Shown here: positions 7,712-60,749 of the stretch, piece by piece
Numbering within the stretch: the first letter of the stretch is position 1
Layout of the letters: each line of letters opens with the position of its first letter
From: Leptonemataceae bacterium
Lineage (GTDB): Bacteria; Spirochaetota; Leptospiria; Leptospirales; Leptonemataceae
NCBI GenBank assembly: GCA_965227295.1
Contig: OZ245742.1
Coordinates: 5,632,001 to 5,696,000 of the forward strand
Direction: 5' to 3'
DNA length: 64,000 bases
The notes under the pieces: generated by a model
What the model was told of the DNA's origin: nothing
What the model saw: only the letters and a program-made list of their open reading frames with translations
Database searches by the model: none
Position numbers and translations under genes: made by a program

Positions 7712-8605
7712 ATGAGCAACGATCTTACCGTAAACCCCGTGCCGGACCGTAAAGGTTACGTCGTATTCTTTATTCTGATTTTCTTTCTCATGGCTTACGC
7801 CTCGTTCCTGACCTGGGACGTGGTCACCCGGGGACACGGCAGCCTGTACACGGTCGTCCTGAAGTACGGTTCGATTCTGCTCACGTTCCTGCTCACGCTC
7901 ATGATCGGCAAAGACGATCACGACGTTCGCGATCGCACGCTGCTGCAACTGGCGTTTCTGTTCTCGGCCACCGGCGATTTCTTTTTGATCATCATGACCT
8001 GGTTCTTTTCGGCCCAGAGCGGCACCTGGTTTCTGTGCGGCATGGCCGCGTTTTTCTGCACGCAGATCATGCTGATCATTCGCCACAGCCGCGACTTCGT
8101 ATGGAACCGCATCGAGATCATCTCGGCGATCATCATCTACGGTTTCGTCGCGAGCATCATGATCAGCCTGCTGCCGTACATCGAAACGTCGCTGATCCTG
8201 CCGATCCTGATCTACGCCGTGGCGCTGACCACGAGTCTCTGGATGGGCATCGGCACTTTGTGGCGCCCGTACTATCGCATGACCATCGCCGTGATGATCG
8301 CCATCGGCGTGAGTTGTTTTTTTATGTGCGACCTGAACGTCGTGCTCGGCGAGATTTTCACACCGGACGCGCAGCAGATCATCCGGGAGAAGTTCGGCCT
8401 GGACCTGGTCCTCCCGCATACGATCCCGGACGTGGACATCCAGGTCCGCAAACCCCTGGCGTTGCCCGAGGGACTGGTCGCGCTCTTCGGCATCATCATG
8501 TGGGTCTTTTACTTACCGGCACAGGTGCTGCTTTCGACGAGCGGATACAAGTTGAAGTTCCTGCGCAGCATCGTCCCGGCCCTGCCGCCCTCGCCGCCGC
8601 GGTGA
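7712..8605 (+). CDS. YhhN / lysoplasmalogenase-like multi-pass membrane protein
   Basis: FSATGDFFL, FLCGMAAFFCTQ, FFMCD, FYLPAQ; about 8 hydrophobic segments. Confidence 0.7.
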   Translation: MSNDLTVNPVPDRKGYVVFFILIFFLMAYASFLTWDVVTRGHGSLYTVVLKYGSILLTFLLTLMIGKDDHDVRDRTLLQLAFLFSATGDFFLIIMTWFFSAQSGTWFLCGMAAFFCTQIMLIIRHSRDFVWNRIEIISAIIIYGFVASIMISLLPYIETSLILPILIYAVALTTSLWMGIGTLWRPYYRMTIAVMIAIGVSCFFMCDLNVVLGEIFTPDAQQIIREKFGLDLVLPHTIPDVDIQVRKPLALPEGLVALFGIIMWVFYLPAQVLLSTSGYKLKFLRSIVPALPPSPPR

Positions 8606-8609
8606 AACT

Positions 8610-8890
8610 GTAGTTCAAGAGCTGCAGTTCGCGGCGTTGGCCGTGAAAAACGTAAGTTAAGTTGAGAGATGATTAAGGGAATAGTTTTGCTACGGCTCTT
8701 CGGAGTTGCGGATTTTCGTTTTGCAGGCGAACGATGACTTCGGCCCGGACGCGGATTAGCAACTCAGCTTCGGGAAGAGTAACTCCAATTCGTTCCGGGT
8801 CGAAGTAAAACAATCGCCACCCGACAACCTATCCACATCTCCCGCCAGTCGTACCCATAAAATTATTCCTACAAACTCCCGGCCACTCAC
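8610..8890 (-). repeat. Degenerate copy of the long repeat unit
   Basis: Collinear reverse-complement matches to unit blocks: GTAGTTCAAGAGCTGCAGTTCGCGGCG, GCTACGGC..GATTTTCGTTTTGC, CCCGGACGCGG..ACTCAGCT, CCAGTCGTACCCATAAAA. Confidence 0.8.
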
Positions 8891-8894
8891 CCTT

Positions 8895-10295
8895 CTATTC
8901 GGGGCGTGCTCGAACTACGGCAGCGGCGGTGGTTTCATCTACGATAAAGCGGTGTTTCCCCGATGCAAGCACGGAGTGCTTGAGCACGCTCCCGGGCACG
9001 TCGTAACCGAGAACGCGGCGCAGGGCCTGTTGCACGTACACCACGGCGTCGCCGGCCTTTGCGTTGGCGTTACGAAACTGCAACGTGAAGCGCAGGCCGG
9101 CCTCACTTCTAATAAACTGACCGCGCAGAATTTGATTATCGAAGACCTTGTTCGCTTCTTGCAGCAGATCACGAAGCAACGATGCGAAAATCTTGTGGCC
9201 GCGCACATCGGTGACGAAGTCTTCCGCGCGCCCGTCGATACGCCGGATCTTCTTACCGGAAATGCCGCAGCGACAATGTTCAAAAACCACCTCGCCCCGA
9301 TCTCCCGTATCGTAACGGATTAACGGCAGATCGTAAGCGAGTAGCGTCGTCACGAGCATGTGACCGTACTCGCTCTGTTCGAGGAGAATCCGATCCTCCA
9401 GGACGTGCAGGCCGTTCCGCTCGGAGCACTCCACCGCGATCGTCGCCAGCTCGGACGAGCCGTACGATTGAAAGACCACGGTACCGAAGCCTTCTTCCAA
9501 CAACGCACGCACATCCTCGGACAGCACCTCACCGGTTACGTGAATGTGATGCGGCGAATGGAGAATCTTGCGATTCTTGCGCCTGGCGTAACCGACGAGT
9601 TCGGCCAGATACGCCGGCATGCCGTGGATGCTGTCCGGTCGCGCGTGTTCGATGGTACGCAGGATCGACTCGGCACTGTGATCGTCCAGGCGCTGAAATA
9701 GAATGAAGAACATGCCGCCCGGCCTTAGAATGCGTTCAATGCCGTCGAAGCGATAGTGCATATCCGCCTGGCCGAGATACAGAAAGCTGTCCCCGGGACG
9801 CCAGCCGAAGAAACGCTCCACCGCCACCTGCTGGCGCAGACGACGCTCCACCTCGGCCCGCGTCACCCAGAACGGCACCGGATCCCCGCTGGTCCCGCCG
9901 CTGGCGAAACGAAACCGAAAGCCGCCCCGGAGCACGACCCGCAGGCGCGTTAACATCGAGGTCTTAATTGTTAGTTCCGGTAAATTATGAGCATCCCCGG
10001 GCACCAGCTCCGGCCCGTGCTGTTTGAGGCCGTGGCGATCCAGGGGACGGACCTCCGCGGCGAAACGTTCCAGGAGATCCGCGTCGCCCTGCAACAGAGT
10101 ATCGAAGCGGCCGCGATACAAAGGAACGCGCTCGTTGCAGGCTTCCAGTAATCGACGCAGTCGCTGCCGGACGTCCGAATTTTCGCCGGAGCCTTCCGGA
10201 AACAACCGGTCGGAAAGCACCCGGCGGATCAACAGGCGCAGGAGCAACCCCAGCCAGAGTTTGCGCAACCATCGTCGCATCAACGAGAAGCTCAC
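8895..10295 (-). CDS. Phenylacetate-CoA ligase (PaaK)-like adenylate-forming protein
   Basis: SGGTSGDP, TGEVL, YGSSE, PLIRYDTGD, GRAED. Confidence 0.85.
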   Translation of the reverse strand: MSFSLMRRWLRKLWLGLLLRLLIRRVLSDRLFPEGSGENSDVRQRLRRLLEACNERVPLYRGRFDTLLQGDADLLERFAAEVRPLDRHGLKQHGPELVPGDAHNLPELTIKTSMLTRLRVVLRGGFRFRFASGGTSGDPVPFWVTRAEVERRLRQQVAVERFFGWRPGDSFLYLGQADMHYRFDGIERILRPGGMFFILFQRLDDHSAESILRTIEHARPDSIHGMPAYLAELVGYARRKNRKILHSPHHIHVTGEVLSEDVRALLEEGFGTVVFQSYGSSELATIAVECSERNGLHVLEDRILLEQSEYGHMLVTTLLAYDLPLIRYDTGDRGEVVFEHCRCGISGKKIRRIDGRAEDFVTDVRGHKIFASLLRDLLQEANKVFDNQILRGQFIRSEAGLRFTLQFRNANAKAGDAVVYVQQALRRVLGYDVPGSVLKHSVLASGKHRFIVDETTAAAVVRARPE

Positions 10296-27586: not shown

Positions 27587-28081
27587 TTAGCCGCTGCGGC
27601 GACGACGAGTTTCCGGCGGGGCCACTCTCGTGAGGATCGGCTCCGACTTGCTTTCGTACCCCAGTTCTACGCTGCGACGGAGAATGCGAAAGTACCACCA
27701 GAGCAATTCCATGAGACTGTCCTTGCCCAGTTCCCGGTAGAGATCCTCCGCCGCGGACTTGAGGTCCGGATGGAGGAACATGTTGTGGATGGGACTTTCG
27801 TCCGAGTACTCGTCCGAGCGAATGAGATCGCAGGGATCCACCTCGTAATACTTTGCACAGGCGAACAGCGTGCGCAAAGGAATCTCGACCTTTCCCCGTT
27901 CCATTCGAGAGAGGTAACTGGCATCCAACTTAACGCCGTACCGCTCCCGAATGATCTTCGCGACGGACATGGATTCTCCGCGAGCTTCTCTTAACCTGCG
28001 AAGTCTTTCACCTACGCGACTTGTGTCTATTCCCGAATTCATCATGATTATACTCTGAACATTAATGCAGAATGGCCTCAA
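27587..28081 (-). CDS. XRE-family HTH regulator, paralogue 1 (real start probably near 28046)
   Basis: VGERLRRLREARG..SYLSRMERGK.EIPL. Confidence 0.85.
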   Translation of the reverse strand: MRPFCINVQSIIMMNSGIDTSRVGERLRRLREARGESMSVAKIIRERYGVKLDASYLSRMERGKVEIPLRTLFACAKYYEVDPCDLIRSDEYSDESPIHNMFLHPDLKSAAEDLYRELGKDSLMELLWWYFRILRRSVELGYESKSEPILTRVAPPETRRRRSG

Positions 28082-28285
28082 CTATATTCCTGTGTAGTAG
28101 GCCTTTCTGAAGGGTCTCGCACTTAAAAAAGTTAAACATTGTAAAATTATTACACTGACTGTCATTAATTTTTGAATATGCTGAAACAAGCTTTGCATCC
28201 AGCCTATCAAACCGTACCATGAGACGAAATCCATTTCTTCTCGTTCAAACAAAAAATTCTAGCAACTTTAGAAATAACCTTAAGC

Positions 28286-28696
28286 TTATTGCCCCGCGGG
28301 TGCGGAGTCATCGCCGAGGTCGAGGGTACGATTTACGAAGCGAAAGTACATCCACAAAAGCTCAATGAGATGATCTTTGCCCAACCGCTCGTGTAGAGAT
28401 TGCAACACAGCCTTGACATCCGGCTGCAAAAATAGATACTGCGCCGGATCCGGGTCCGAAAAGTCCTCAAGATAAACGAGATCTCGAGGGTCCGCGTCGT
28501 AATAACGCGCGAGAGCGAATAACGTGCGCAGAGGAATCTCCGCTTTGCCGCGCTCCATGCGCGAAAGATAGCTTGGATCAAGCTTAACTCCGTAGCGTTC
28601 TCGTATTGTCTTCGCCACGGACATGCTTTCTCCGCGAGCTTCTCTTAAACGACGCAGGCGTTCTCCCACGCGCGCCGTATCGTCCGGACCGTTCAT
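28286..28696 (-). CDS. XRE-family HTH regulator, paralogue 2
   Basis: HTH nearly identical to that of 27587-28081. Confidence 0.88.
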   Translation of the reverse strand: MNGPDDTARVGERLRRLREARGESMSVAKTIRERYGVKLDPSYLSRMERGKAEIPLRTLFALARYYDADPRDLVYLEDFSDPDPAQYLFLQPDVKAVLQSLHERLGKDHLIELLWMYFRFVNRTLDLGDDSAPAGQ

Positions 28697-28917
28697 GGCT
28701 GAAAGAATGAGCAGCCCCGGACTTCACTCAACTAAATTTTTGTTTAGTATATCATTTTCTTGTGGATAACTGCTATTCTTGAATCTCCCGCGTAATAATA
28801 TTACCGACCCCAGGGAAGGCCCCTGAACAATTTGACATACTTACCGCCGCCGTCTCCGAACAGCCGACCCGCATCGCACAAATTGATGAGGTCCGATTAA
28901 AATGTGACAGACCCGTT

Positions 28918-30255
28918 TCAGGCATTCGCGTCCTCGCTCCGGCCTTCCGTCCGTCCGCGCATCCAGCGCATCAAGAGGACATCCAGACCCCAAACGCTCA
29001 AACCCAACACCGTCGCCGTCACCAGGGACTCCACCGGCAACCAGATGAACAGCCCGCCGATGAGACCGAGAAAGCAGCCGAGATATTGAATATATTGAAG
29101 CTGATCAGACGTCGAACGCCACAGCAGTTGCTCCAGGCGGACCTCGTCGAAGCGCTGGAGATTTTCGATGATCACATTCTGGACATTCACCTGGTTCACG
29201 AGAAAGACCACGGCGCCCAGTGCGTACTCCTCGATCACTCCGCTCTGTTCTTCAATGGCGCCCGGAATGCTGCGTAAGAATTCAGCGAGTTTCTCCTCGT
29301 GGCGGTCCATGCGGAACGTGAGGTTTTCTATGATCTCTTCCAGGCGGCCGGAAATCTCCTGTTCGCCGGCCACGGCCTTGTAGAGGCGCAGCAGCCCGCC
29401 CTCGACAAAGCCGACGTTCTCGAAGTCCAGGCCGCGGACGAAATCTCGCGCTCGCTGCTGAAACTCCGGCGATTTCAGGAACTGATTCACGTAGTGCTGC
29501 CCCAGCTCCACGATATCGGCGCGGAATTCGTCGCTGACCACCAGGGCGCGCAGGGAACTCGTCACCTTCTCCCGGTGTTTGGCGATCAGCCCGCTGCGGC
29601 GGATTTGATCGAGGATGAGTTCCGAGTTGATGATCTCCTTCGAGATCTGCACGCCCAGGCGGTAGACAATGCGGTCCTTCCGCGAGGGGATGAGCCCCTG
29701 GCCAAGCAACGGTCGCTTTTCGCGCGGGTAAAAGAGCATCTTAATTGCGAGCCAGTTCGTGAAAAAACCCACCAGGCCGGTGACGGTGATCATGCGCAGC
29801 ATGCCTTCCAGATTCACGGCCTCCGAACGCCACGGAAGCACCAGGCTGCCGTCGAAATCCCAGAACAACGAACCGGCAAAACCCGCGGCGCATACATACG
29901 GCAGGAGCCGCAGCAAGAGCAGTACGAACGAAAAGCGATCCTCGCCGGGAGGCGGCGGCAGGGGCTCCGGTTCCGGCGGCGGAGCCAGGCGGGTGCCCCA
30001 TTTCTGCACGAACTGGATCAGGCGTTCGCCGGTGAGCGGGGCCCCCCCGGGATATCCGCCCGGAGGATACTTCGGTCCGGCCTCCTGATCGGCCGCGGAA
30101 TCACCGGCAGTCCCGCTCTCGTTCGCCGGGTTTTCCTTCGCCGCAGGATCGTGCTCCGGCGCCGACGCATCGGTCGACTCCGGATCGGGCTGGGGCTGCT
30201 GCTCGGACTGATTCATCATGGTTTCATGTAATGTATCGTGATCTTCATATCGCAA
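28918..30255 (-). CDS. DUF445-family membrane protein
   Basis: VGFFTNWLAIKMLFYP..QGLIPSRK; C-terminal LQYIQYLGCFLGLIGG. Confidence 0.85.
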   Translation of the reverse strand: MRYEDHDTLHETMMNQSEQQPQPDPESTDASAPEHDPAAKENPANESGTAGDSAADQEAGPKYPPGGYPGGAPLTGERLIQFVQKWGTRLAPPPEPEPLPPPPGEDRFSFVLLLLRLLPYVCAAGFAGSLFWDFDGSLVLPWRSEAVNLEGMLRMITVTGLVGFFTNWLAIKMLFYPREKRPLLGQGLIPSRKDRIVYRLGVQISKEIINSELILDQIRRSGLIAKHREKVTSSLRALVVSDEFRADIVELGQHYVNQFLKSPEFQQRARDFVRGLDFENVGFVEGGLLRLYKAVAGEQEISGRLEEIIENLTFRMDRHEEKLAEFLRSIPGAIEEQSGVIEEYALGAVVFLVNQVNVQNVIIENLQRFDEVRLEQLLWRSTSDQLQYIQYLGCFLGLIGGLFIWLPVESLVTATVLGLSVWGLDVLLMRWMRGRTEGRSEDANA

Positions 30256-33094: not shown

Positions 33095-34893
33095 CGGCCG
33101 GTCCGGGGAAACCGCGGCCGGACCTGCCGGCGTGCTCTGCTCTCCTGGGAGTCCTGATCGCCGCCCTTTTCGCGGGGGCCTGCGTGCCTGTGAGCACCAT
33201 GAACGGTGCTCCGTCTACGAACGTCTCCCTGGACCTGCGTCGCGCCGAGTGGTACATCGCCTTCGAAGACAGCCGACGCTTCCTGGACCCAAATATCGAC
33301 GCGAGTACCTCCCGGCGCTGGCAGCGCATTGAGGTGCCGTCGAACTGGATGCGGCTCCGCGATCATCCGGGGGTGGCCTGGTACCGTACGCGCATCAGCC
33401 TGCCGCCGGAGCTCGAGGGTCGACCACTGGGCCTGTTCATCCGAAACATCTTCAACGCCGACGAAGCTTTCTGGGATGGACGGCCCATCGGGAACACCGG
33501 CGTCGTAGACAACTACGACACTCACGGCTATTACCTCCCCCGGGCCTATTCCATTCCCGCCGAACTCACCGGCCCGGGCAGCCACGTCCTGGCCATTCGC
33601 GTACGCGGTCACTTTCCCGACGCCGGCGGCATCCGCGACGGCCCGGTCTTTCTGAGCACGGCCGAGGATGCCGCGCGCCGGTTGGTGCGCCTCGAACAAC
33701 AGAGTCTGCTCTTTGTGTTGATCTTCGGGCTCACGGGTACCTTTTTCGTCTGGCTGCACGCCGTGGCCGGTCGGCCCCGGGGCGCCTTTTCGTTCGGCGC
33801 GGCCAACATATTTGCCGCCCTCCTGGAGCTCGGCCGCGCCCCGCTGACCCAGGAACTCGTCGGTGACTTCCTGGTTGCCCGCGGCATTGTCTATCTCGGG
33901 ACCTACGGTTTCGGTGCGGCCTCGCTGGCGTTCTGGTCGGCCTACTTTCGCGTGGCAACGACCCCGGTCCACGTCGTCTACTACGGCTTTAGTTCGTTGG
34001 TGATGGCGGCGTGTGTTCTGAGTCCGGACGTGATCCTGTGGCGGGAGCTGCAATCGCTGTGGTTCTATATTTCGCTGACGCTCTCTCTGGCCGTGATCTT
34101 TCTTTTGTTCCGGCATATCTGGTTCCGGCACCGCGACGCGCTCTGGCTGGGCGTGGCCTTCGGCGTCTGTATGGCCGGCGCCATCCAACAATGGCTCGTG
34201 GTTCAGGACGTCTTCGACGGGCCGCGACTCTTTCCGTACGGCTTTCTCTGCATGGATCTGATCGTCGCCGTGATCCTGTACCGGAGTTTGTACCAACACT
34301 TCCGCGAGGTGCGGCGACGCGTCGAACTGCTGGACCACATCGATCGCCAGCGCGGCCGGTTCTTTGAAAACGTGGCGATCAGTTGCCTGCCCCTGGCCGA
34401 TCGCCTCCGACGTTCCACCGAGGCCCTGCCTCCTCCCCGCGGAGAACCGGACGCGCCGGACCGCAGGTACGCCGACGTCGAAGCCGACGCCGTAGCCCTC
34501 CGCCGGGCCCTGGGTCGCATGAGCACCGTGGCCCGCATGCACGCCGGCGACTTCGACGAAGCGCCCGGCGTGGAACCGGCGGTGCTCGCCCGCCGCAGTC
34601 CGCAACTCCGCGTCGAAGGCGAACCGGGCCATGTGCGCATCGTCGGCTCGCCGGAACTTTTGGAACGCCTGGTGGAAACCCTGGCCGATTGTTCCCGGGA
34701 CGGCCTGGTGTATCTGCGGATGGAAGAGCGGACCTTTTTGTTTTCCGTGCGGACGCCAGACGGCTTCTTCGGAGACTCGAATCGTCTCATCGATTTCACC
34801 CTGGTTCGCGAAGCGGTCCGCCACCTCGGCGGCAAAGAACCGGCTCTTCGCAAAGATACACTCACCGTACGTTTACGCGCGGCGAAGAAGTAG
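33091..34893 (+). CDS. Jelly-roll plus 7TM sensor-like protein with degenerate kinase-like tail
   Basis: [30 protein letters not shown] (similar to N-domain of 12331-15633), 7 hydrophobic helices, no H-box His. Confidence 0.75.
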
Positions 34894-34931
34894 GAACCCC
34901 GGAAAGTTTTATTTGCTCCGTAACTCGCAAC

Positions 34932-36859
34932 CGCCCCGAATCGTGATGTAAGTGCAGGCCAGTGTACATTAATGCTTTTATGGGTACGGCTGGTTCCAGC
35001 TGACGCGCGGAGGTTATGCCGGGGAACGTGGTACGGCGGACCGGAACGGCGTCTTCGCCGCAAGAAACGCTGCGATAGCTGAGTCTTGCAATTTACCTCA
35101 TGGTTCTCACAGCAACAGTCACGAACCGCAGTCCTTGAATTACCGGAAACGCTCGGGTAATTCGCACACGCCCCGAATTGTGACGTAAGTGGCGGTCAGT
35201 GTACATTAATACTTTTTTGGGTACAACTGGTTCCAGGCGACCACGGAGGTCATGCCGGGGAACGTGGTACGGCGCACCGGAACGGCGTCTTCGTCGTAAA
35301 GATCCATCCCGCGAATCCGCACCCCGGAGCCCCGCTCTATCCGCGGGGCGGAGCGGGTGCGGGTTCGCGATAGCTGAGTCGCAAACCGACGTCCGGGTCG
35401 AACGCAGCATTCTTAACAAAACGAAAATCCACAACATTTCTGAAGTCGGACAGGCCCCGGCTTATCCCTTAATCTCGCCGAAGCGAGATTAAGGCTCCCG
35501 CTCAGCCGTAGCCAAAAAAGGCATTTCACGGTTGCGCAACTTACCTTATGCTTCTCACAGCAACAGTCACGAACCGCAGTCCTTGAACTACCGGAAACGC
35601 TCGGGTAATTCGCACACGCCCCGAATTGTGATGTAAGTAGCGGTCAGTGTACATTAATACTTTCATGGGTACAACTGGTTCCAGGCGACCACGGAGGTCA
35701 TGCCGGGGAACGTGGTACGGCGCACCGGAACGGCGTCTTCGTCGTAAAGATCCATCCCGCGAATCCGCACCCCGGAGCCCCGCTCTATCCGCGGGGCGGA
35801 GCGGGTGCGGGTTCGCGATAGCTGAGTCGCAAACCGACGTCCGGGTCGAACGCAGCATCCGTGAGCAAAACGAAAATCCACAACATTTCTGAAGTCGGAC
35901 AGGCCCCGGCTTATCCCTTAATCTCGCCGAAGCGAGATTAAGGCTCCCGCTCAGCCGTAGCCAAAAAAGGCCTTTCACGGTTGCGCAATTTACCTTATGC
36001 TTCTCACAGCAACAGTCACGAACCGCAGTCCTTGAATTACCGGAAACGCTCGGGTAATTCGCACACGCCCCGAATTGTGATGTAAGTAGCGGTCAGTGTA
36101 CATTAATACTTTCATGGGTACAACTGGTTCCAGGCGACCACGGAGGTCATGCCGGGGAACGTGGCAAGGCGCACCGGAACGGCGTCTTCGTCGTAAAGAT
36201 CCATCCCGCGAATCCGCACCCCGGAGCCCCGCTCTATCCGCGGGGCGGAGCGGGTGCGGGTTCGCGATAGCTGAGTCGCAAACCGACGTCCGGGTCGAAC
36301 GCAGCATTCTTAACAAAACGAAAATCCACAACTCCCGCTCAGCCGTAGCCAAAAAAGGCATTTCACGGTTGCGCAACTTACCTTATGCTTCTCACAGCAA
36401 CAGTCACGAACCGCAGTCCTTGAACTACCGGAAACGCTCGGGTAATTCGCACACGCCCCGAATCGTTGTGTAAGTGGCGGTCAGTGTACATTAATACTTT
36501 TATGGGTACGGCTGGTTCCAGCTGACGCGCGGAGGTTATGCCGGGGAACGTGGTACGGCGGACCGGAACGGCGTCTTCGTCGTAAGGAACGCTGCGATAG
36601 CTGAGTCGCAAACCGACGTCCGGGTCGAACGCAGCATTCTTAACAAAACGAAAATCCACAACATTTCTGAAGTCGGACAGGCCCCGGCTTATCCCTTAAT
36701 CTCGCCGAAGCGAGATTAAGGCTCCCGCAAAGCTGTAGCCAAAAAAGCCCCTTCACAGTTCCGCGACTTACTTCATGTTTCTCACGGCAATCGCAAGGAA
36801 CCGCAGCTCTTGAATTACCGGAAATTCTCTGTCGTTCGAACACGCCGAACGGCTGGTTC
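34932..36859 (+). repeat. Tandem array 1 of a non-coding ~390-450 bp modular repeat
   Basis: 152-bp core at 34932-35083, then units starting TTAC at 35093, 35541, 35990, 36378 and a partial unit at 36768 (periods 448, 449, 388, 390). Confidence 0.97.
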
Positions 36860-36908
36860 GCGGCCCATGTGTTGATTGACCGGAATGTTCGCACGGCGAA
36901 ACTCGGCC

Positions 36909-37997
36909 ATGGCCTTCGCCTTTCATTCGGTCGTCCTCGAACGGGCCTCGGGTTTATGGAAGCACCACGACCTGGCCCTGGGCATCGAAGGCATCGACAC
37001 CCAGCATGCCTGGCTGGTGGCGGTGATCCTGGAACTGGAGTGGGTCCTGAATCGCGAGAGCGAAGGCGCGGACCAGTACATCGCCATGTTGATCCAGCAT
37101 GCGAAGAGCTACGCCGCGGAACACTTTAACGTCGAAGAAGAACTCTTTCGCCGCCTGCATTACTCGGACGAAGAGCACCACGTGCGCAGCCACCGGAACT
37201 TCATCCAGGCCGTGGAAAAGGTGGCGCCGGGTTCGTATGATCGCGCCGGGGCGAACAAGCTGTACCGACTGCTGCGCATGTGGCTGGTGCATCACATCTT
37301 GCAGGAAGACCGCGGCTACGCGGAGTACTTTAAGAAGCGCCGGCTCCTGGACGACGCCAACAAATTGTTCGAGGAAATCGATCAGGAAAAACACGTCCTG
37401 GACGACTATCGCCGCCAGGTCTTCAAAACTATTTCCGGTTCGGCGCGGAACATCGAGGTCACCACGCCCGAAATCCAGGCGGAGATCGCTTCCATCTGGA
37501 AACGCCTGAACCTGCAGATCCAGGTCCCGCTGATCGACATCCAGCACCTGTGGTTGATCAAACTCGTCGTGGATATGGACCAGGCCATGCGCGATTCGAA
37601 GCTCACCCGGGACGCGGTGCTCGCGCATACGATCGCCGAGGCCTCGGAGTACATCGACGTGCACTTCCGCACCGAGGAGCAGTTGATGGACATCATCGAG
37701 TATCCGGACAAAGCCCGGCACCAGGCGACCCATCGCAAGTTCGTGGAGTTCGTACAGCAGCGCCGCAAGGAACTGGAGAGCGGCAACACCCGGGCGGCCA
37801 TGACCCTGGTCAACGATCTGCGGCAGTGGCTGACGAATCACATTGCCCTGGACGACAAAACCCTGGCCGAACACTACCGCAACCACCGCGAGGCGGCCCT
37901 GGCGTTTTCGAAAGAAAAAATCGTTTCCGGCGAAGCGCACGTCCGCCGCAATCAGATTAACTTATACCAGATTATTGTTAAGAAGCAGGCCGTATGA
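36909..37997 (+). CDS. Tandem two-domain bacteriohemerythrin (start uncertain, 36876-36909)
   Basis: Two sets of IDxQH, HFxxEE, HxxxH, WLxxHIxxxD. Confidence 0.92.
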   Translation: MAFAFHSVVLERASGLWKHHDLALGIEGIDTQHAWLVAVILELEWVLNRESEGADQYIAMLIQHAKSYAAEHFNVEEELFRRLHYSDEEHHVRSHRNFIQAVEKVAPGSYDRAGANKLYRLLRMWLVHHILQEDRGYAEYFKKRRLLDDANKLFEEIDQEKHVLDDYRRQVFKTISGSARNIEVTTPEIQAEIASIWKRLNLQIQVPLIDIQHLWLIKLVVDMDQAMRDSKLTRDAVLAHTIAEASEYIDVHFRTEEQLMDIIEYPDKARHQATHRKFVEFVQQRRKELESGNTRAAMTLVNDLRQWLTNHIALDDKTLAEHYRNHREAALAFSKEKIVSGEAHVRRNQINLYQIIVKKQAV

Positions 37998-38722
37998 TCG
38001 CGTTGATGATCGCACTCGTTGCCTGGGGGGCCGGACTCACGGCCCTGGCCGGAGGCGCGGCGGCGTTATGGCGGCACAAACCGGGCGGCCGCGAGGCGAG
38101 CGACATTCAACTGCGCCTCCTGCACGGCATCGTCGCCTTCGGCGGCGGCGTGTTACTCGCGGCGGTAGCCTTCGCGCTTTTGCCGGAAAGCATGGATCTG
38201 CTTCCGGGCTACGTGCTCGCCCCCGCGTTCCTGGCCGGCGGCGTAATTTTTGCGCTCTTCGATGCGTGGCAGGCGCGCCACGGCAAAACCAAAAACACCG
38301 CGCAGTTCCCGGCGATGCTCATGGACTTCGTTCCCGAAGCGGTTTCCCTCGGCGCGGTCTTCGGCCACGATCGTCGCCAGGGCATTCTGCTCGCGGCTTT
38401 CATCGCCCTCCAGAATTTTCCCGAGGGTTTCAATTCCATGCGCGAGATGCTGGTATCCGGCACGGCACCGGGCCGTGTACTGCGGCGCCTGGCGCTCGTG
38501 AGCCTGCTCGGCCCCGCCGCGGCACTGGCCGGGCACTTCTTTCTACAGGAATTGCCGTACGTTACCGCGACGTTGATGGTCTTCGCATCCGGCGGGATTC
38601 TGTATTTGATCTTTCAGGACATCGCCCCGCAATCACGACTCCCGCGACACTGGAGCCCCACCCTGGGCGCCGTGCTGGGTTTTCTGCTGGGCATGATCGG
38701 GCATAAGTTTCTTTCACCGTGA
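37994..38722 (+). CDS. ZIP (GufA-like) divalent metal transporter
   Basis: AFGGGVLL, MDFVPE, QNFPEG, ASGGILYL. Confidence 0.88.
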   Translation: MIALMIALVAWGAGLTALAGGAAALWRHKPGGREASDIQLRLLHGIVAFGGGVLLAAVAFALLPESMDLLPGYVLAPAFLAGGVIFALFDAWQARHGKTKNTAQFPAMLMDFVPEAVSLGAVFGHDRRQGILLAAFIALQNFPEGFNSMREMLVSGTAPGRVLRRLALVSLLGPAAALAGHFFLQELPYVTATLMVFASGGILYLIFQDIAPQSRLPRHWSPTLGAVLGFLLGMIGHKFLSP

Positions 38723-38788
38723 GTTAGTTCGCGTAAGATTTTTTCGCGGTTCGCCTGTTTTCGCTAACTATTTGCCGCCGCAAGCTAT

Positions 38789-39706
38789 GTGCGGAATTTT
38801 TTGGATTGCGCGGGCACGTACTTCGAATATGCCGTACGCATGCGCAGTCGATTGGCCGCGGCCGGCCTGGTTTTGGTTTTTTGCATGTTGCCCGGGCCCG
38901 GCCTCGCGTGCCTGGCCCTGCCGGCCACGACGTCCATCAACACCGTCGACGTGGAACGGCCCGTCGATGCGCTCGATCGCAGCGCGGATAGTACGGGCAA
39001 CTGTCTCGGCGGCGCTCCGGCAACGACGGCTCCCCGCGGCCACAATCCGCTGCTCTTCGTCTCGCGCGAGGGCTACTCGCTCGGCTACTCCGGCTTTATG
39101 CGCTCGGCCCTGTGGGTCTGCGAAATCATCGAGGCCAACGAACTCACCGGCGACGCGAAACGCAAGAATCGCTTCAAGGCGGATCCGCTCATTCCGGGAC
39201 AGTGGCAGTCACAGCTCTCCGACTACAAATATTCCGGCTTCGACCGCGGACACCTGGCCGCCGCCGGTAATTACAAGCACGATCAGGAGTTAAACAACGA
39301 GTCGTTCTATCTTTCGAACATGGCGCCGCAGGTTCCGGGCTTCAATCAACAGATCTGGCGGGAGCTGGAAGAACTGAGCCGCGAGTACGTCGACGAGTTC
39401 GACACGGGCATCTACGTGATTACCGGCGGCTTCTTAGAGGATCATCGCGAACTCCGAAGCATCGGCGCCAACAAGGTCGTGGTGCCCTCGCATTTCTACA
39501 AGATTCTTGTGCGCGAAAGTTACGGTGAACATACGAGTCTCGCCTTTGTTCTGGAGAATCGCAAGCACCGCCGGCCGTTCCATTTCGCGGCCTTCCTCGT
39601 GAGCATCGACTCGATCGAAGCACGCACGGGGCAGGATTTTTTTCCGCGGATGCCGGCGACGGAACAACGGCAACTGGAAGGCGCGGCCGCGGCGGGCTTG
39701 TGGTGA
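38789..39706 (+). CDS. Secreted DNA/RNA non-specific endonuclease (NucA/EndoG family; start possibly 38840)
   Basis: DRGHL, FYLSNMAPQ, FNQQIWRELE, VPSHFYK; signal-like N-terminus. Confidence 0.92.
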   Translation: MRNFLDCAGTYFEYAVRMRSRLAAAGLVLVFCMLPGPGLACLALPATTSINTVDVERPVDALDRSADSTGNCLGGAPATTAPRGHNPLLFVSREGYSLGYSGFMRSALWVCEIIEANELTGDAKRKNRFKADPLIPGQWQSQLSDYKYSGFDRGHLAAAGNYKHDQELNNESFYLSNMAPQVPGFNQQIWRELEELSREYVDEFDTGIYVITGGFLEDHRELRSIGANKVVVPSHFYKILVRESYGEHTSLAFVLENRKHRRPFHFAAFLVSIDSIEARTGQDFFPRMPATEQRQLEGAAAAGLW

Positions 39707-40744
39707 TCAGCGCCCGTGCGGGTGGCAGTTCCGCAAGGTATCGCGCAGGCGATCTTTCGAAACGTGGGTGTAGACCTGGGTCGTCGAGAGCGAGGCGTGA
39801 CCGAGCAACTCCTGCACCGCGCGAATGTCCGCTCCGGCGTTGAGCAGGTCCGTGGCGAAGCTGTGGCGAAACTTGTGCGGGCTCACGTTACGGTGAATCA
39901 TGAGGCGCCGCTGAATCATGCGCAGAATGTGTCGCGCCCCGCGATCGCTTAACCTCTCGCCGCGAGCATTTAAGAACAAGGCTTCGTCGCGGGCCGCGGC
40001 CCCGCGCACCTGCAGGTATTCACGTACCGCCTCACGCGCGGCGTCGCCGAAAAAAACGATGCGGTCTTTGCGCCCCTTGCCGGTGATCTTGAGTTCCCGC
40101 GGCGCGCGAACCAGCTGATCCGCCGTGAGCGAGAGCAGTTCGCTGATCCGCATGCCGGAGGAGTACAACATTTCGCACAGCGCCCGGTTACGGCGTTGCA
40201 GAAACACCCGGCGCTCCGGGTTTACCGTGCCCGTTTCGGCATGCGCCGCCGGATCATCGTCTTCCAGCAGATGCCCCAGATCGGCCGGGGTCAGAACCAC
40301 CGGCAACGGCCGGCTGAACTTCGGCGCGTTGAGTTCCGCCGCGGGATTATCGCCGACGAGTTTCTCCCGGCGCTCCAGATCCCTGTAGTAACTTTTAATG
40401 GCCGAAAGTTTGCGTGCTTGAGAACGCGCTCCGAGTTTTCGCCGTTTGCTGCGGCCGGCAACGCTGTTGGCCTCGGCGCGGCCGCCGCCAAAACGCGCGC
40501 CGGTGCGTTCGGCGAAGTAGGTGCGCAGTTCTTTCGGAGTAATGCGCTCCGGTTCGCCGGCGTTCTTTGCGAGATAGACGAAGAACTCCCAGAGATCCTT
40601 GAGATACGCACGCAGGCTGTGCGGCGAAAGATCGCGCTGGTAGGCGAGCGTGTCGTGAAACGTGCTCAGCTCGGCCTGGAGATCCGGGCGGGCGTCCAGT
40701 TGTTCCCAGGCGCCGACGGGGAGATGGGTGGCGGCTTCGGGCAT
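39707..40744 (-). CDS. xerC: Tyrosine recombinase XerC
   Basis: LYSSGMRISE, GKGRKDR, HKFRHSFAT, LGHASLSTTQVYT; same strand as downstream hslVU. Confidence 0.85.
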   Translation of the reverse strand: MPEAATHLPVGAWEQLDARPDLQAELSTFHDTLAYQRDLSPHSLRAYLKDLWEFFVYLAKNAGEPERITPKELRTYFAERTGARFGGGRAEANSVAGRSKRRKLGARSQARKLSAIKSYYRDLERREKLVGDNPAAELNAPKFSRPLPVVLTPADLGHLLEDDDPAAHAETGTVNPERRVFLQRRNRALCEMLYSSGMRISELLSLTADQLVRAPRELKITGKGRKDRIVFFGDAAREAVREYLQVRGAAARDEALFLNARGERLSDRGARHILRMIQRRLMIHRNVSPHKFRHSFATDLLNAGADIRAVQELLGHASLSTTQVYTHVSKDRLRDTLRNCHPHGR

Positions 40745-40785
40745 GATTTGATTATCGGAAGATTTTTACAGGAGGTAGAGAGGGT

Positions 40786-40937
40786 CTCAGCTATCGCAGC
40801 GTTTCTTACGGCGAAGACGCCGTTCCGGTCCGCCGTACCACGTTCCCCGGCATAACCTCCGCGCGCCAGCTGGAACCAGCCGTACCCATACAAAGCTTAA
40901 TGTACACTGGCCGCCACTTACATCACGATTCGGGGCG
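40786..40937 (-). repeat. Solo 152-bp core of the long repeat, inverted
   Basis: Reverse complement of 34932-35083 with few differences and the same ends. Confidence 0.95.
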
Positions 40938-41004
40938 TGCACAAACAACCCGTCACCAATCGCTAACACAAGAAATCAACACGATCCTGTTGTCCCGGTC
41001 GCCC

Positions 41005-42174
41005 TTATTCCCCGCCGCTCCGAAACTCCGCCACCGAATCCACGCTGCCCTTCAAATGCTCGGTGGTATCCGTGTAGAATCGCACCATCTTCGCCCGCGC
41101 GCTCGCGGGTAACTGGAGCGGCATGCCCGCATTATTCTGTAAGTACTCGTTCACCGGCAGCACAAAATACTTCCGCCCCGCCTGCCCGCGTTCCACATAA
41201 ACCCACACGGGCTCGTAAGAAATATCGCGAAACACCACTTTTTGATCCGATTGCTCGTCCGGGTTGCGTTCGATGGTGAACTGGAAGATCTTGCCGCCGT
41301 CGGTGTAGCGCCGTTGCTGATTCGATACGAAGTTGCCCAGGCTGAACGCGATCAAACGATCGGCGGTGCGGCCGAATTTGTCGGTAACGTTCGTGCGTAC
41401 ACCGAACGGTTGCAGCACGTGCGGGTGCCCGCCGATGACGATGTCGGCGCCGTGTTCGATGGCGAAGTCCGTCCACTTCTTCTGGTAGGCATCCGGCTGC
41501 CGCAGGTACTCGCCGCCGTAATGGTAGATCACAATGATGGCATCGGCGTTCGTGCGGCGCGCGGCGGCCAGGTCGTAGACGATGCGTTGTTCGTCGATGA
41601 GGTTCACCACGGTACCGCGCGGAACTTTGATGCCGTTGGTACCGTACGTAAAATTCAAGAACGCCAGGCGCAGGCCGTTCTTTTCAACGACGAGCACGCG
41701 CCGATCTTCTTTGTCCTGCACGCTGCGATACGATCCCAGGTGCGCGAACCCCAAACGTTCCACGACCTCGATGGTACGCAGCATGCCGGACTTGCCCTTG
41801 TCGAGGGTGTGATTGTTCGCGAGCGTGAGCACGTCGATGCCCGCATCCTTTAAGGCGACCGCCAGGGAATCCGGCGCGCCGAACGTCGGGTAGCCGCTGT
41901 ATTTTTTGCGGTCCCCCGGCAGCGTCGTTTCGAGATTGGCAATGGCCAGATCGGCGCGGCTCAGATACGGGGCCACCGGTTCGAAGGTATGCGCGAATTC
42001 GTAGCGTTTCGTCTGCGCGTTCCAGGCGGCGCTCAGTTGCGGGGCATGGCACATCACATCGCCGACAACGGCCATGCTCACGCGATCCGGGCGCTCGTCG
42101 GAGCCGTTCAGGGCAAACGTACACCCGGCGGCGGTTAAGAGAATCGCGAGACTGTACTTTACGAAACGTTTCAT
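41005..42174 (-). CDS. CapA/PGA_cap family metallophosphatase-fold protein
   Basis: VGDVM, ANLET, LANNHTLD, HYGGEY, GGHPHVLQ, SLGNF; ATG at 42174 gives a signal peptide. Confidence 0.92.
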   Translation of the reverse strand: MKRFVKYSLAILLTAAGCTFALNGSDERPDRVSMAVVGDVMCHAPQLSAAWNAQTKRYEFAHTFEPVAPYLSRADLAIANLETTLPGDRKKYSGYPTFGAPDSLAVALKDAGIDVLTLANNHTLDKGKSGMLRTIEVVERLGFAHLGSYRSVQDKEDRRVLVVEKNGLRLAFLNFTYGTNGIKVPRGTVVNLIDEQRIVYDLAAARRTNADAIIVIYHYGGEYLRQPDAYQKKWTDFAIEHGADIVIGGHPHVLQPFGVRTNVTDKFGRTADRLIAFSLGNFVSNQQRRYTDGGKIFQFTIERNPDEQSDQKVVFRDISYEPVWVYVERGQAGRKYFVLPVNEYLQNNAGMPLQLPASARAKMVRFYTDTTEHLKGSVDSVAEFRSGGE

Positions 42175-42185
42175 AAGAATGTATG

Positions 42186-42323
42186 ACTCCGAGGACCGAG
42201 GTACCGAGATAGAAGATGAGAGCATCCGTATGAAGAGCACTGACAGGCTAAGACGACTATTTTTAACAAGCTCGCCCATCCAAACTCTTTCTTTTTATTC
42301 CTCGGTCCCTCAGTCCTCGGAGT
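42186..42323. repeat. ACTCCGAGG inverted-repeat element, copy 2
   Basis: ACTCCGAGGACCGAGGTACCGAG ... CTCGGTCCCTCAGTCCTCGGAGT. Confidence 0.8.
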
Positions 42324-57904: not shown

Positions 57905-59314
57905 CTACCGCACGTCCTTCACATGAAAGTGCAAATCCACCGGCAAGATCTTCGGGAACAGCGTGATCATGATCGTCCCGGCGACGTACATCCACAGCCC
58001 GAATAATCCCGACACCGCAAACATGGACGAGTGAAAGTCCCCCATGCGATCCTGTAAGAGAATCGCGATGGTCATGGCCAGGGCGGCGTTCTGTAGTCCC
58101 GTTTCCAATGCGATGGCGCGGGTTTGAAAGTTATCGACGCGCAGGATCTTCGCGACCACGAGGCTGAAGACCATGGCCGAGAGCGTCAGCGTAAGTACCA
58201 CCGCGTAGAAACTAAGGCCGTAGCGGTCGAAGTCCAGGAAGTGGTGCAGGTTGTTCAGGATGCCCGTAATGATCAAGAACAGCAGCGCGAACACGCCCAG
58301 GCCCGAAAAGTATTTCTCGGACGCCTTCGCGAAGTTCTCGAAGCGCGCGCGAATGCCGAGGCCCACGAGCAGCGGCACGATCACCAATACCAGTATCTGC
58401 ACGATGACGTCTTTCACCGGGATCTCGACGTTGGGTACTCCGGCGGCGTAGAGTTGCAGCAAGAGCGGCGTGAATACGAGCGAGAGAATCGTGGATACGC
58501 CGGTCATGGAAACCGAGAGCGCCAAATCGCCCTTCGCCCAGTAGGTCATGAGATTCGAAGTCACGCCGCCGGGCGACGCCGAAACAAGAATGAGGCCGAT
58601 GAAAATAAACGGATAGCTCTCCGGATAACCGGCGGCGCTGCCCAGGAGATACGCGAGGAACGGCAGCAATCCGAACTGGCACAGCGGCCCCACGATCATG
58701 GCGCGAGGTTTGATGGCCACCATGGCGAAGTCGCGCACGGTGAGCGTCATGCCCATGCCCATCATCACGAAAAAGAGCATGAGCACGATGAAGATAAAAA
58801 ACAAACGATCGATGAAGCCGCGTTCGGGCACGGACTCGAGGCGCGCGAAGTGCCAGAGTTCGCCGTCCACCGTGGCGGTGCCGGCGCGCACGTTGAACTT
58901 CATTTTGTTTTTGATTTTATCGGCGATGCCGGCGTAGGGCGAGTCGCTTTCGGCGGCCAGGGCGGAAGCGTCCTCCGGAATGGAGAGGATGTAGATGTCA
59001 TCGTCGAGGGAGCGCACGAGATAGAGTCCGCGCACCGCGATGCCGGCGTCCGTGTGCACATCGAGGCGGCGCAGGTTGCCGGTGAACTCCAGGGCTTCGG
59101 CGTTTTCGTAATTGTAGTCCCGCGCCGCGTCGGACAACTTCGCGAACAACACCGCGGCATCGAGGCTGCGCTGCATCTTCAGCAGGCGTTCGTACTGTTC
59201 CTCTCCGGAGACCTCTTGCGGTTGTGCCGGTTCGTCTTGCGCTCGCAGGACCGCCGTGCTGACGACTGCCGCCGCCACGGCGATGATGAGAATGTTGTTT
59301 TTATGTTTTCGCAT
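57905..59314 (-). CDS. Bile acid:sodium symporter (BASS) family transporter with N-terminal soluble extension
   Basis: MMGMGMTL, QFGLLP, PGGVTSN, GDLALSV, ETGLQN; signal peptide plus ~150-aa extra domain. Confidence 0.9.
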   Translation of the reverse strand: MRKHKNNILIIAVAAAVVSTAVLRAQDEPAQPQEVSGEEQYERLLKMQRSLDAAVLFAKLSDAARDYNYENAEALEFTGNLRRLDVHTDAGIAVRGLYLVRSLDDDIYILSIPEDASALAAESDSPYAGIADKIKNKMKFNVRAGTATVDGELWHFARLESVPERGFIDRLFFIFIVLMLFFVMMGMGMTLTVRDFAMVAIKPRAMIVGPLCQFGLLPFLAYLLGSAAGYPESYPFIFIGLILVSASPGGVTSNLMTYWAKGDLALSVSMTGVSTILSLVFTPLLLQLYAAGVPNVEIPVKDVIVQILVLVIVPLLVGLGIRARFENFAKASEKYFSGLGVFALLFLIITGILNNLHHFLDFDRYGLSFYAVVLTLTLSAMVFSLVVAKILRVDNFQTRAIALETGLQNAALAMTIAILLQDRMGDFHSSMFAVSGLFGLWMYVAGTIMITLFPKILPVDLHFHVKDVR

Positions 59315-59442: not shown

Positions 59443-60735
59443 TTCATGTTTCTCACGGCAACGCAACGAACCGCAGCTCTTGAACTACCGGAAACGCACG
59501 GGTTTTTCGCACACGCCCTGAATTGTGGTGTAAGTGAAGGCCAGTGTACATTAAGGCTTTTATGGGTACAGCTGGTTCCAGCTGACGCGCGGAGGTCATG
59601 CCGGGGAAATGTGGGGTGCGCACCGGAACGGCGTCTTCGTCGTAAGAAATGCTGCGATAGCTGAGTCGCCAACCGACGTCCGGGTCGAACGCAGTATTCT
59701 TAGCAAAACGAAAATCCACAACTCCCGCAAAGCCGTAGCCAAAAAAACCACTGCACGATACGGCAACCGCAACGAGTCGCAGTTCTTGAATTACCGGAAA
59801 CTCTCGGGTGATTCGCATACGCCCCGAATCGTGGTGTAAGTGGCGGCCAGTTTGTATTAAGCCTTGTATGGGTACGGCTGGTTCCAGCAGATGAACGGAG
59901 GTCATGCCGGGGAATGTGGTAAGGCGCACCGGAACGGCGTCTTCGTCGTAAGGAACGCTGCGATAGCTGAGTCGCAAACCCGCGTCCGGGTCGAACGCAG
60001 CATTTTTTGCGAAACGAAACTCCACAACGTTTCTGAAGGCGGACATGTCCCGGCCTATCCCTCAATCTCGCCGAAGCGAGATTGAGGCTCCCGCTCAGCC
60101 GTAGCCAAAAAAACCACTGCACGATACGGCAACTTACTTCACGTTTCTCACCGCAACCGCAACGAGTCGCAGTTCTTGAATTACCGGAAACTCTCGGGTG
60201 ATTCGCATACGCCCCGAATCGTGGTGTAAGTGGCGGCCAGTTTGTATTAAGCCTTGTATGGGTACGGCTGGTTCCAGCAGATGAACGGAGGTCATGTCGG
60301 GGAATGTGGTAAGGCGCACCGGAACGGCGTCTTCGCCGCAAGAAACGCTACTGTAGCTGAGTCGCAAACCCGCGTCCGGGTCGAACGCAGCATTTTTTGC
60401 GAAACGAAACTCCACAACGTTTCTGAAGGCGGACATGTCCCGGCCTATCCCTCAATCTCGCCGAAGCGAGATTGAGGCTCCCGCTCAGCCGTAGCCAAAA
60501 AAATCCCTTCACCATTGCGCAACTTACCTTGTGTGTCTCACGGCAAACGCCGCGAACCGCAGCTCTTGAACTACCGGAAACGCGCGGGTTATTCGCACAC
60601 GCCCCGAATCGTGAAGTAAGTGAAGGCCAGTGTACATTAAGGCTTTTATGGGTACAGCTGGTTCCAGCTGACGCGCGGAGGTCGTGCCGGGGAACGTGGT
60701 ACGGCGGACCGGAACGGCGTCTTCGTCGTAAGAAA
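59443..60735 (+). repeat. Tandem array 2 of the long modular repeat
   Basis: Units starting near 59443 and 59761, at 60134, and a partial unit at 60524 (390-bp period); clearly homologous to array 1. Confidence 0.97.
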
Positions 60736-60749
60736 ACTTCGGCTACACC

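Follow-up and report, generated by a model that had tools for sequence, protein, structure and literature searches.

What are the long, tandemly arranged repeats that lie between genes in a 64,000-nucleotide (nt) stretch of a Leptonemataceae bacterium chromosome (GenBank assembly GCA_965227295.1, contig OZ245742.1, positions 5,632,001 to 5,696,000; hereafter the window)? A sequence-only reading of this stretch had described a ~390-450-bp unit at four loci, 3.6 kb in total, and had placed two explanations side by side: arrayed structured RNAs, or a non-autonomous element that amplifies in tandem and disperses by means of an enzyme encoded elsewhere. Analysis of the unit in the window, in the complete genome and in 40 related genomes indicates that the family is best explained as a lineage-specific, non-coding, mosaic interspersed repeat, a satellite-like DNA of the same kind as bacterial interspersed mosaic elements (BIMEs) and clusters of repetitive extragenic palindromic (REP) sequences, with a unit of 331 nt.

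A dispersed family built on a 331-nt unit

The window is part of one closed contig, the 5,938,550-bp genome G000. BLAST with one unit against this genome gave 324 matches at 109 loci, covering 69,660 bp or 1.17% of the genome, while a profile built from 73 full-length units gave 347 matches at an E-value of 1e-3 or below (338 at 1e-5 or below) in 112 loci. The family comprises about 110 loci (109-112) and 70-75 kb, ~1.2% of the genome, and its loci are spread evenly along the chromosome, with 7-11 per 500-kb bin. The four loci of the window, whose coordinates and total length agree with the 3,752 nt of the profile search, are real, but the family is not the four-locus feature that it had been taken for.

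The base unit is 331 nt long, and this is also its common form. The 390- and 449-nt forms, which correspond to the length first proposed, do exist and represent the 331-nt unit extended by one or both of two optional 59-nt hairpin modules, H1 and H2. Conservation extends across the whole 331 nt, and the units, from <1 to ~7 per locus, abut head to tail; they show neither the short repeats nor the unique spacers of clustered regularly interspaced short palindromic repeats (CRISPR). Array ends cluster at unit positions ~105-120, 230-270, 55-90, 250-262, 288-296 and 331, and this concentration at a few positions implies that the unit is modular. The form met most often among the arrays comprises complete units only and starts near unit position 105-120; ~20 loci hold a solo core (unit positions ~100-260). 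The left boundary of the core is fairly constant, reading TTCG(A/C)NCACGCCCC, often directly behind TAG, TAA or TGA. Boxes of 10-20 nt within the unit, among them CTGGTTCCAG, ACCGGAACGGCGTCTTC and GCCGTAGCC, are almost invariant, and the adjoining columns vary by 25-30%.

Could the arrays be collapsed or mis-joined repeats, produced by the assembly? Over 34500-37300, the stretch with array 1, where read support comes from assembled contigs and summed depth does not equal copy number, both junctions with unique DNA are reproduced with 0 differences in the short-read contigs of two runs from one study, and 706 (run X1) and 484 (run X2) repeat-derived contig pieces map to the array. The contigs of both runs break inside the repeat and none crosses the whole of array 1, whose length is taken from the closed assembly only; the lack of an independent read or contig across any whole array speaks for an artefact. 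None of this stretch is present in a third run with the same species label (X3). Against an artefact stand the reproduced junctions and the ~110 loci with diverged, locus-specific units in a single closed contig, and we regard it as hardly credible.

Two inverted copies of an older element

Comparison with the congeners revealed what the unit is made of. Each unit contains an ~80-nt two-box element, which we call E, twice: as E1 and E2, copies that are inverted relative to each other and have diverged. Its box 1 reads GCTACGGCTG.GCGGGAGATGCGG and its box 2 TCGGCCCGGACG, with ~35 variable nt between them. E1 in forward and E2 in reverse orientation alternate every 331 nt; E2 is the unit junction read as its reverse complement, and its alignment with the congeners' solo elements runs from one end to the other; E1, in the 3' half of the core, is more diverged. 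The unit is an inverted E1/E2 pair with conserved linkers and two optional hairpin modules. The first reading was right that the units have no spacers and no bounding terminal inverted repeats, but it overlooked these two inverted derivatives of an older element.

The core profile gave one weak match among the 40 relatives (congener G002, E-value 6.7e-4), which reached 4.5e-06 when rescored unfiltered on a few loci. A 16-base pattern taken from this match occurs at 2 and 3 places in two congeners, and a control pattern at 0. Searched with a profile of E, congener G001 has at least 14 copies and G002 at least 23, with only 115 candidates scored out of ~3,205 (G001) and 2,686 (G002) at first look; in the other 37 relatives, 36 genomes gave no match to this profile and one a marginal match. 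E stands alone in seven congener loci examined with ~1.5-kb flanks, save for a weak second match (E-value 0.06) in one of them (L107), and among 20 short congener loci one (L132) likewise shows a second, weak match. In G000, by comparison, 182 of 184 E matches lie inside arrays, 179 of them in E2 orientation. E is dispersed singly in the two congeners, and in this species nearly every copy is part of a composite unit. E is not a hairpin: the consensus fold of 30 copies reaches -0.41 kcal/mol with 3 invariant and 0 covarying pairs (-0.39 on the reverse strand; mean z -0.09).

The composite unit, matched 324 times in its own genome, was found by BLAST in none of the 40 relatives, where one 25-nt match in G001 (E-value 5.4e-4) was the only trace. 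It has 0 matches in the GTDB contigs (one genome per species) and 0 in viral contigs; in metagenome contigs one search pattern gave 0 matches, and the other 21 chance 21-mers only. Together with the lack of an Rfam match and of a published description as far as searched, these results agree with the earlier suggestion of an undescribed family.

The solo core of the window offers a direct comparison between species. The spacer between the PGA_cap gene and the next gene measures 260 nt in G000, with the core, versus 63 and ~87 nt in two congeners; the PGA_cap protein is 66% identical to its congener homologue. The gene 42 nt from the core (39707-40744, minus) encodes a XerC/XerD-type tyrosine recombinase, which qualifies the earlier statement that no transposase lies near any copy. 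It is not evidence of a local transposase, because in G001 the gene after PGA_cap also shows tyrosine-recombinase-like motifs in the alignment and the core is not present there. Also in G001 (C2:4454395-4457200; L034, L059), the homologue of the 600-aa gene upstream of array 1 converges on the recombinase-like gene with a 55-nt spacer; in the window, the 600-aa gene and the recombinase-like gene are separated by 34897-39706, which contains array 1 and three genes, for a hemerythrin-domain protein, a ZIP transporter and a non-specific endonuclease.

In H1, a basal stem of 13 bp leads through an internal CGGAG/CGGAG loop to an apical stem of 6 bp. BLAST with the module sequence places it at 45 loci, all in or beside arrays, and a stricter pattern yields 42 copies, 41 of them in arrays; in 19 arrays it forms the 3' cap, and 22 cases are internal. 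H2, a perfect hairpin with a tetraloop-like loop, interrupts E2 in its middle, the insertion point being precisely the unit junction, and its 12 copies in the genome are all in arrays. The pattern search for H1 also returned, as a side match, a second and unrelated small repeat family with ~6 dispersed genome copies, whose matches to the pattern begin TTTTTTTGGGCGT and which carries a GC-rich hairpin GGGCGTGCCCCCGCGCTACGCGCGGGG...CTCCGGGCTCCGC.

Variation among the copies

Unit identity averages 0.87 within arrays and 0.81 between arrays, and the nearest relative of a core lies in its own array in 50 of 149 cases. The observation that neighbouring units are more alike holds well in the window, with array 1 97% identical internally and 62-84% to array 2, and weakly for the genome. 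At 97%, array 1 is a local amplification of unusually recent date.

Variant blocks are found in every combination, linkage mostly reaches ~10 nt, and 239 of the 254 between-array tracts with at least 90% identity are shorter than 250 nt. The units are mosaics of shared variant blocks and can be read as a well-mixed recombining population. Block transposition of whole arrays was rejected, as only 6 of the 254 tracts exceed one unit. Variants present in at most two copies amount to 0.47% per site and shared variants to 15.3% per site, and the 85 most conserved columns show no deficit of the rare variants (0.71% vs 0.32-0.46% elsewhere). This suggests that individual loci tolerate changes in the boxes but that such changes fail to spread, which would place the constraint on propagation rather than on local host function. 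CpG/deamination hot spots were rejected as the source of the shared variants (transition/transversion ratio 1.05; CpG columns, 21% of all columns, contribute 16% of the variation).

Coding and RNA potential

The unit consensus has stops in all six frames, its length is 3 x 110 + 1 nt, and its variation carries no period-3 signal, in agreement with the earlier statement that no frame is kept across units. One 15-codon frame behind a GGAGG box was rejected owing to its invariant third positions.

The alternative of arrayed structured RNAs is not supported. The covariance models of Rfam 15 gave 0 matches at the gathering score in the window, with only two chance matches when E-values up to 1 were admitted (both 0.9, both on the H2 hairpin), and 0 matches at E-values up to 1 in five congener loci with element E. 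Compared with dinucleotide shuffles, the whole unit has no excess stability (z +0.28 and -0.34); over 40 copies, five sub-regions on both strands gave mean z values from -0.70 to +0.87, and module B, at z +0.5 to +0.9, tends if anything towards less folding than its shuffles. For 159 distinct core copies, the consensus-fold energies are -5.2 and -2.3 kcal/mol. In the two best internal complementarities, of 17 and 14 nt, the paired fraction equals the expectation for independence, and an RNA helix between the A and B modules was rejected because these stretches are uncompensated. We read them as a trace of the E1/E2 inverted duplication, which explains complementarity of this kind. Among the top 40 mutual-information pairs, which are mostly local haplotype links, 37 lie at most 15 nt apart. 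ARAGORN found nothing over the window, and a tRNA-like origin was rejected on this basis. The exception is H1, whose 13-bp basal stem covaries: the 39 copies compared include 20 distinct arm pairs and have 227 of 260 cells paired, where shuffles average 195 and none of 1000 scores as high, and several double changes keep the pairing.

The arrays might still be non-coding RNA genes, or long RNAs in 3' untranslated regions, that act independently of stable structure, as sponges or antisense RNAs through their single-stranded boxes; the hairpins H1 and H2 would then serve for protection or termination. The low structure of module B would keep the boxes accessible, the covarying H1 stem and the perfect H2 hairpin fit such a role, and many arrays lie 0-20 nt behind the stop of a co-oriented gene (54/76), where they would be co-transcribed. 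However, neither the 331-nt unit nor E (30 copies) shows covariation or excess stability, Rfam offers nothing beyond the two chance H2 matches, and the hairpins are found in only 42 (H1) and 12 (H2) of ~340 units. A scan of array 1 found no sigma-70-like promoter and one terminator-like site only, and the arrays between tandem genes are antisense to the upstream gene in 30 cases vs sense in 23. We consider this explanation distinctly unlikely.

Placement relative to genes

Using our own, crude codon-usage gene calls (4,559 genes, 87% coding), all copies of the window are intergenic, as had been noted. Arrays occur in 51 of 837 convergent spacers, 54 of 2884 tandem spacers and 7 of 837 divergent spacers; when the 112 flanking pairs are viewed in the orientation of the array, 53 are convergent, 23 tandem-sense, 30 tandem-antisense and 6 divergent. 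The median distance from array to stop codon is 8 nt on the 5' side and 25 nt on the 3' side, with 54/76 and 41/83 arrays, respectively, within -30 to +20 nt of the stop, while the median distances to start codons are 146 and 100 nt. The residual spacer at array-bearing pairs is 42 nt, against a median of 32 nt for convergent spacers without arrays. Targeting of stop codons was rejected on these figures: the abutment is no tighter than the native spacing, and closeness to stops needs no targeting because native convergent spacing is equally short. Genome-wide, convergent spacers are in general very short (median 32 nt, lower quartile 7 nt, with the crude calls), which leaves little room for classical hairpin terminators.

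Array orientation shows a mild bias with respect to replication (69/112). IS200/IS605-type elements show a replication-orientation bias well above this value, and single-strand transposition was rejected, the bias here being only 69/112.

Such a distribution could point to a host-serving cis element at gene ends, in which the boxes would bind a protein, for example a topoisomerase, a nucleoid protein or a factor for roadblock or termination, and the arrays would act as insulators or terminators. Similar host roles have been proposed for the REP sequences and BIMEs of enterobacteria. The strong enrichment in convergent spacers and the proximity to stop codons agree with this explanation, as do the near-invariant boxes between variable neighbours, an orientation independent of the flanking gene, as expected of a site acting at the DNA level, and the low folding of module B. 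Likewise, H1 covaries and caps 19 arrays, and with a median native convergent spacer of 32 nt and with no sigma-70-like promoter and a single terminator-like site found in array 1, something else may end transcription. On the other hand, the expansion is confined to one species, with solo E in the congeners and none in 36 of 37 further relatives; most convergent spacers (all but 51 of 837) have no array; copy-specific mutations are not depleted in the boxes, which argues against selection at each locus; and the unit number varies from <1 to ~7, with ragged ends. A host-serving role is possible but doubtful.

A probable selfish mosaic repeat: evidence and objections

The explanation that we favour, with moderate confidence, is that of a selfish, non-autonomous mosaic repeat of the BIME/REP-cluster type, growing and mixing by recombination. 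The composite unit would have a single origin, in this lineage, followed by multiplication as selfish DNA; unequal homologous recombination, gene conversion or replication slippage between units would make its arrays lengthen, shrink and swap segments, and new loci may be seeded by a trans-acting enzyme or by ectopic recombination. Copies would persist only where they are harmless, behind stop codons and away from promoters, and the conserved boxes (CTGGTTCCAG, ACCGGAACGGCGTCTTC, GCCGTAGCC and others) would be cis sites for propagation without a host function at each locus. One unit has been interrupted, as expected for dispensable DNA: a 1,162-bp IS481-like insertion sequence (IS; G000:C1:1034814-1035975, L063:515-1676), with a 356-aa transposase of helix-turn-helix plus rve domains and 6 genomic copies, is inserted at the GCCGTAGCC motif with the 7-bp duplication CGTAGCC on both sides.

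This explanation comes close to the second alternative of the sequence-only reading, tandem amplification of a non-autonomous element, which is the best supported, but neither the enzyme placed elsewhere nor an insertion signature was found, and several results weigh against it. The right ends of the arrays are ragged, falling at several phases, with no target-site duplication and no consistent terminal inverted repeat. The genome has 0 matches to the Y1 transposase family (PF01797) of the REP-associated tyrosine transposases (RAYTs), whose presence near copies had been suggested as a check, and 6 of 14 control genomes did give matches. Among 11 multi-copy IS and intron loci (IS481-like, IS1595, IS5/IS1182, IS3 and group II introns; single-copy transposases lay outside this set), nothing exceeded a 12-nt chance match to a unit dimer, apart from the array that hosts the inserted IS. 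The searches for Y1/RAYT, Y2 and multi-copy IS or introns yielded no mobilising enzyme, single-copy recombinases not having been surveyed. A near-identical full unit is never shared by two loci; core identity between arrays peaks at 97.8%, and only one between-array tract of at least 90% identity exceeds 500 nt (720 nt at 90.4%). No recent transposition event is therefore visible. At least one module, H1, is under pairing constraint, judging from its compensated changes, and the boxes are near-invariant even in old solo copies, for which a host function would also account.

For Y2 transposases, the genome gave 0 matches, with no control genome positive either. A terminal inverted repeat GGTAGTTC[G/A]AG, present in some junction variants, was rejected since the 3' ends are too ragged. 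Two group II intron families encoding reverse transcriptase/maturase (RVT_1 plus GIIM; L070, 3742300-3744600, and L071, 2020300-2022700) are multi-copy repeats of ~2 kb, and no link to the arrays was seen.

Could the arrays instead be integrated multimers of 331-nt circles, formed by a tyrosine recombinase acting on a resident copy of E or of the core, or by rolling-circle amplification, head to tail and without duplicated target sites? The strictly head-to-tail arrangement, the prevalence of whole units starting near position 105-120, the presence of a XerC/D-type gene, and the solo cores and solo E2-containing pieces that could serve as landing sites are compatible with this scenario, as is H1, which we take to resemble the subterminal hairpin of rolling-circle elements. 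But the array ends do not share a single crossover site and occur at several phases, the E2-to-E2 form predicted by integration at a solo E is seen at ~11 of 112 loci, and units next to each other mostly belong to different haplotypes and so do not derive as copies from a single circle. Nor was an HUH enzyme found (Y1, and Y2 with its silent control), and the neighbourhood of the Xer-type gene is shared with a congener that has no arrays. Integration of circles is very improbable.

Dispersed intergenic repeats are widespread in bacteria, and for most families machinery and function are obscure. This one is a favourable case for study: its unit is long and rich in information, ~340 copies are held in one closed genome, its probable ancestor, the solo 80-nt E, is visible in congeners, and the frequency spectrum separates sites constrained by propagation from free sites. 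The arrays will also break short-read assemblies of the organism, as seen in the two runs above, and should serve as strain-typing markers.

Features of the window

The coordinates of arrays, units and modules are collected in Table 1. Tandem Repeats Finder reports 35088-36332 (period 449, 2.8 copies, 97% matches) in array 1, and 59455-60028 (period 306) and 59763-60735 (period 390, 2.5 copies, 91%) in array 2, where matches range from 85 to 91% over 59455-60735. A repeat search of the window placed 9 copies from the two arrays in one register and returned the solo core in inverted orientation (40786-40974), a 152-nt arm of which is 95% complementary to 34932-35083, as well as a weak inverted copy at 8610-8925. 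Array 1 lies between co-directional genes, 4 nt behind one and 30 nt ahead of the next. No paralogy was found between the two genes flanking the big arrays of the window.

Table 1. Coordinates of the repeat family in the window and of the genes beside it
Feature	Position	Strand	Remarks
Array 1	34897..36846	+	profile search; partial core directly behind stop codon (34891-34893) of 600-aa gene
Array 1, units with H1 and H2	35047-35494 (449 nt), 35495-35943 (449 nt)	+	both modules present
Array 1, unit without H2	35944-36331 (388 nt)	+	
Array 1, unit without H1	36332-36721 (390 nt)	+	
Array 1, last unit	36722-36846	+	partial, more diverged; downstream open reading frame starts 36876
E1	36496..36576	+	forward diverged E copy in module B, unit ~165-245; one of ~190
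E2	36276..36358	-	reverse E copy across unit junction, unit 283-331 plus 1-29; one of 179
H1	35300..35366	+	~60 nt; takes the place of 7 nt after the core
H1, further copies	centres 35774-35802 and 36223-36251		
H2	36663..36721	+	59 nt, perfect hairpin CCCTTAATCTCGC/GCGAGATTAAGG
H2, further copies	35436-35494 and 35885-35943		
Array 2	59443..60736	+	~3.9 units, periods 306 and 390; between start of 469-aa SBF transporter gene (57905-59314, minus) and stop of 650-aa gene (60750-62702, minus), within 14 nt of that stop
Solo core	40783..40972	-	profile search; module B, unit positions ~88-277; between PGA_cap gene (41005-42279, minus) and XerC/D-like gene (39707-40744, minus)
Single old-type whole unit	8608..8925	-	unit positions 104 to 99; E1 retains genus-type box (GGGTACGACTGGCGGGAG); between convergent genes 7712-8605 (plus) and 8895-10295 (minus)

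Other repeats were observed beside this family. In the window, two 219-nt direct repeats (27800-28672; 72% identical, 654 nt apart) lie partly in its sole low-GC kilobase (28001-29000, GC 0.48 vs ~0.60 elsewhere), and three 207-nt direct repeats (1-609; 61-84% identical, rich in GACGG(C/G)GAC motifs) are putative tandem repeats within a gene that would extend beyond the start of the window. In the genome, a large internally repeated region (G000:C1:4549710-4555374, 96 self-matches) and 12-23-kb repeated or duplicated stretches at the contig ends (1-12567 and 5915634-5938550, several self-matches) are unrelated to the arrays.

Comparison with known repeat systems

A search of the published literature returned no comparable family, the nearest descriptions being those of PMC3372372 and PMC4596501. 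The latter describes BrickBuilt of Porphyromonas gingivalis as a minisatellite within a transposable element of the miniature inverted-repeat type (MITE), with a 23-nt unit, small inverted-repeat ends and 19 copies (PMC4596501). Both families are species-restricted and intergenic, with spacerless tandem repeats, modular leader or tail parts and tens of copies, whereas the unit here has 331 nt, the ends are not consistently inverted and the loci number ~110. According to the available part of a survey of 613 prokaryotes, species-specific repeats make up ~1% of a typical genome, ~11% of them are tandem, and 13-14% are non-coding short interspersed repeats (PMC3372372). The present family fits these classes, but it alone accounts for 1.2% of its genome and has a long unit, and no comparable family is described in that portion of the survey.

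The closest known systems are REP clusters and BIMEs, from which the family departs in two defining respects, having no palindrome and no RAYT. With these and with REPINs (REP doublets forming hairpins) it shares an extragenic position at gene 3' ends and between convergent genes, a species- or genus-specific sequence, hundreds of copies, and the coexistence of solo and clustered forms; with BIMEs it also shares an element that alternates in orientation between conserved linkers, here E1 forward and E2 reverse. REPs are imperfect palindromes of 20-40 nt, however, whereas E has ~80 nt and no hairpin, and the period of BIMEs is ~100 nt or less, in contrast to 331 nt here. Pseudomonas REPINs are associated with RAYTs, and no RAYT/Y1 transposase gene is present in this genome; E1 and E2 are only weakly complementary, and uncompensated, and do not form the long hairpin of a REPIN. 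REP-cluster-like architecture can thus arise without palindromes and without a RAYT, which implies that other enzymes must be able to drive such expansions.

Unlike MITEs, the family has no terminal inverted repeats, no target-site duplication and no IS with the same ends among the 11 loci examined. For IS91/ISCR, the palindrome-associated transposable elements (PATEs) of IS200/IS605 and Helitron-like elements, the comparison rests on the absence of Y1, on the 0 matches for Y2 with its silent control, other Rep families not having been searched, and on H1, which is a 3' cap in 19 arrays but internal in 22. Mycobacterial interspersed repetitive units (MIRUs) are 40-100 bp long, and their small frames are coupled to the genes on either side. 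They likewise form head-to-tail arrays at many intergenic loci, some inside operons, as is the case for array 1, but the unit here has 331 nt, stops in all frames and is a mosaic of modules.

Eukaryotic satellite DNA resembles the family in its ~330-nt unit, its head-to-tail order, the mosaic variation of its monomers through unequal exchange and its rapid lineage-specific expansion from a low-copy ancestor. It differs in forming long heterochromatic blocks, whereas the ~110 arrays here, of 1-7 units, lie behind stops in the gene-dense DNA of a bacterial chromosome. Taking this likeness further, the arrays would be a bacterial satellite DNA with its own propagation route, in which E was assembled into the 331-nt inverted-pair unit and spread by a new recombinase or box-binding protein, for example through circular or multimeric intermediates, and in which the arrays double as protein-binding punctuation where transcription units converge. 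We consider this extension unlikely; if true, it would represent a new class of prokaryotic repeat dynamics, beyond that of a long BIME.

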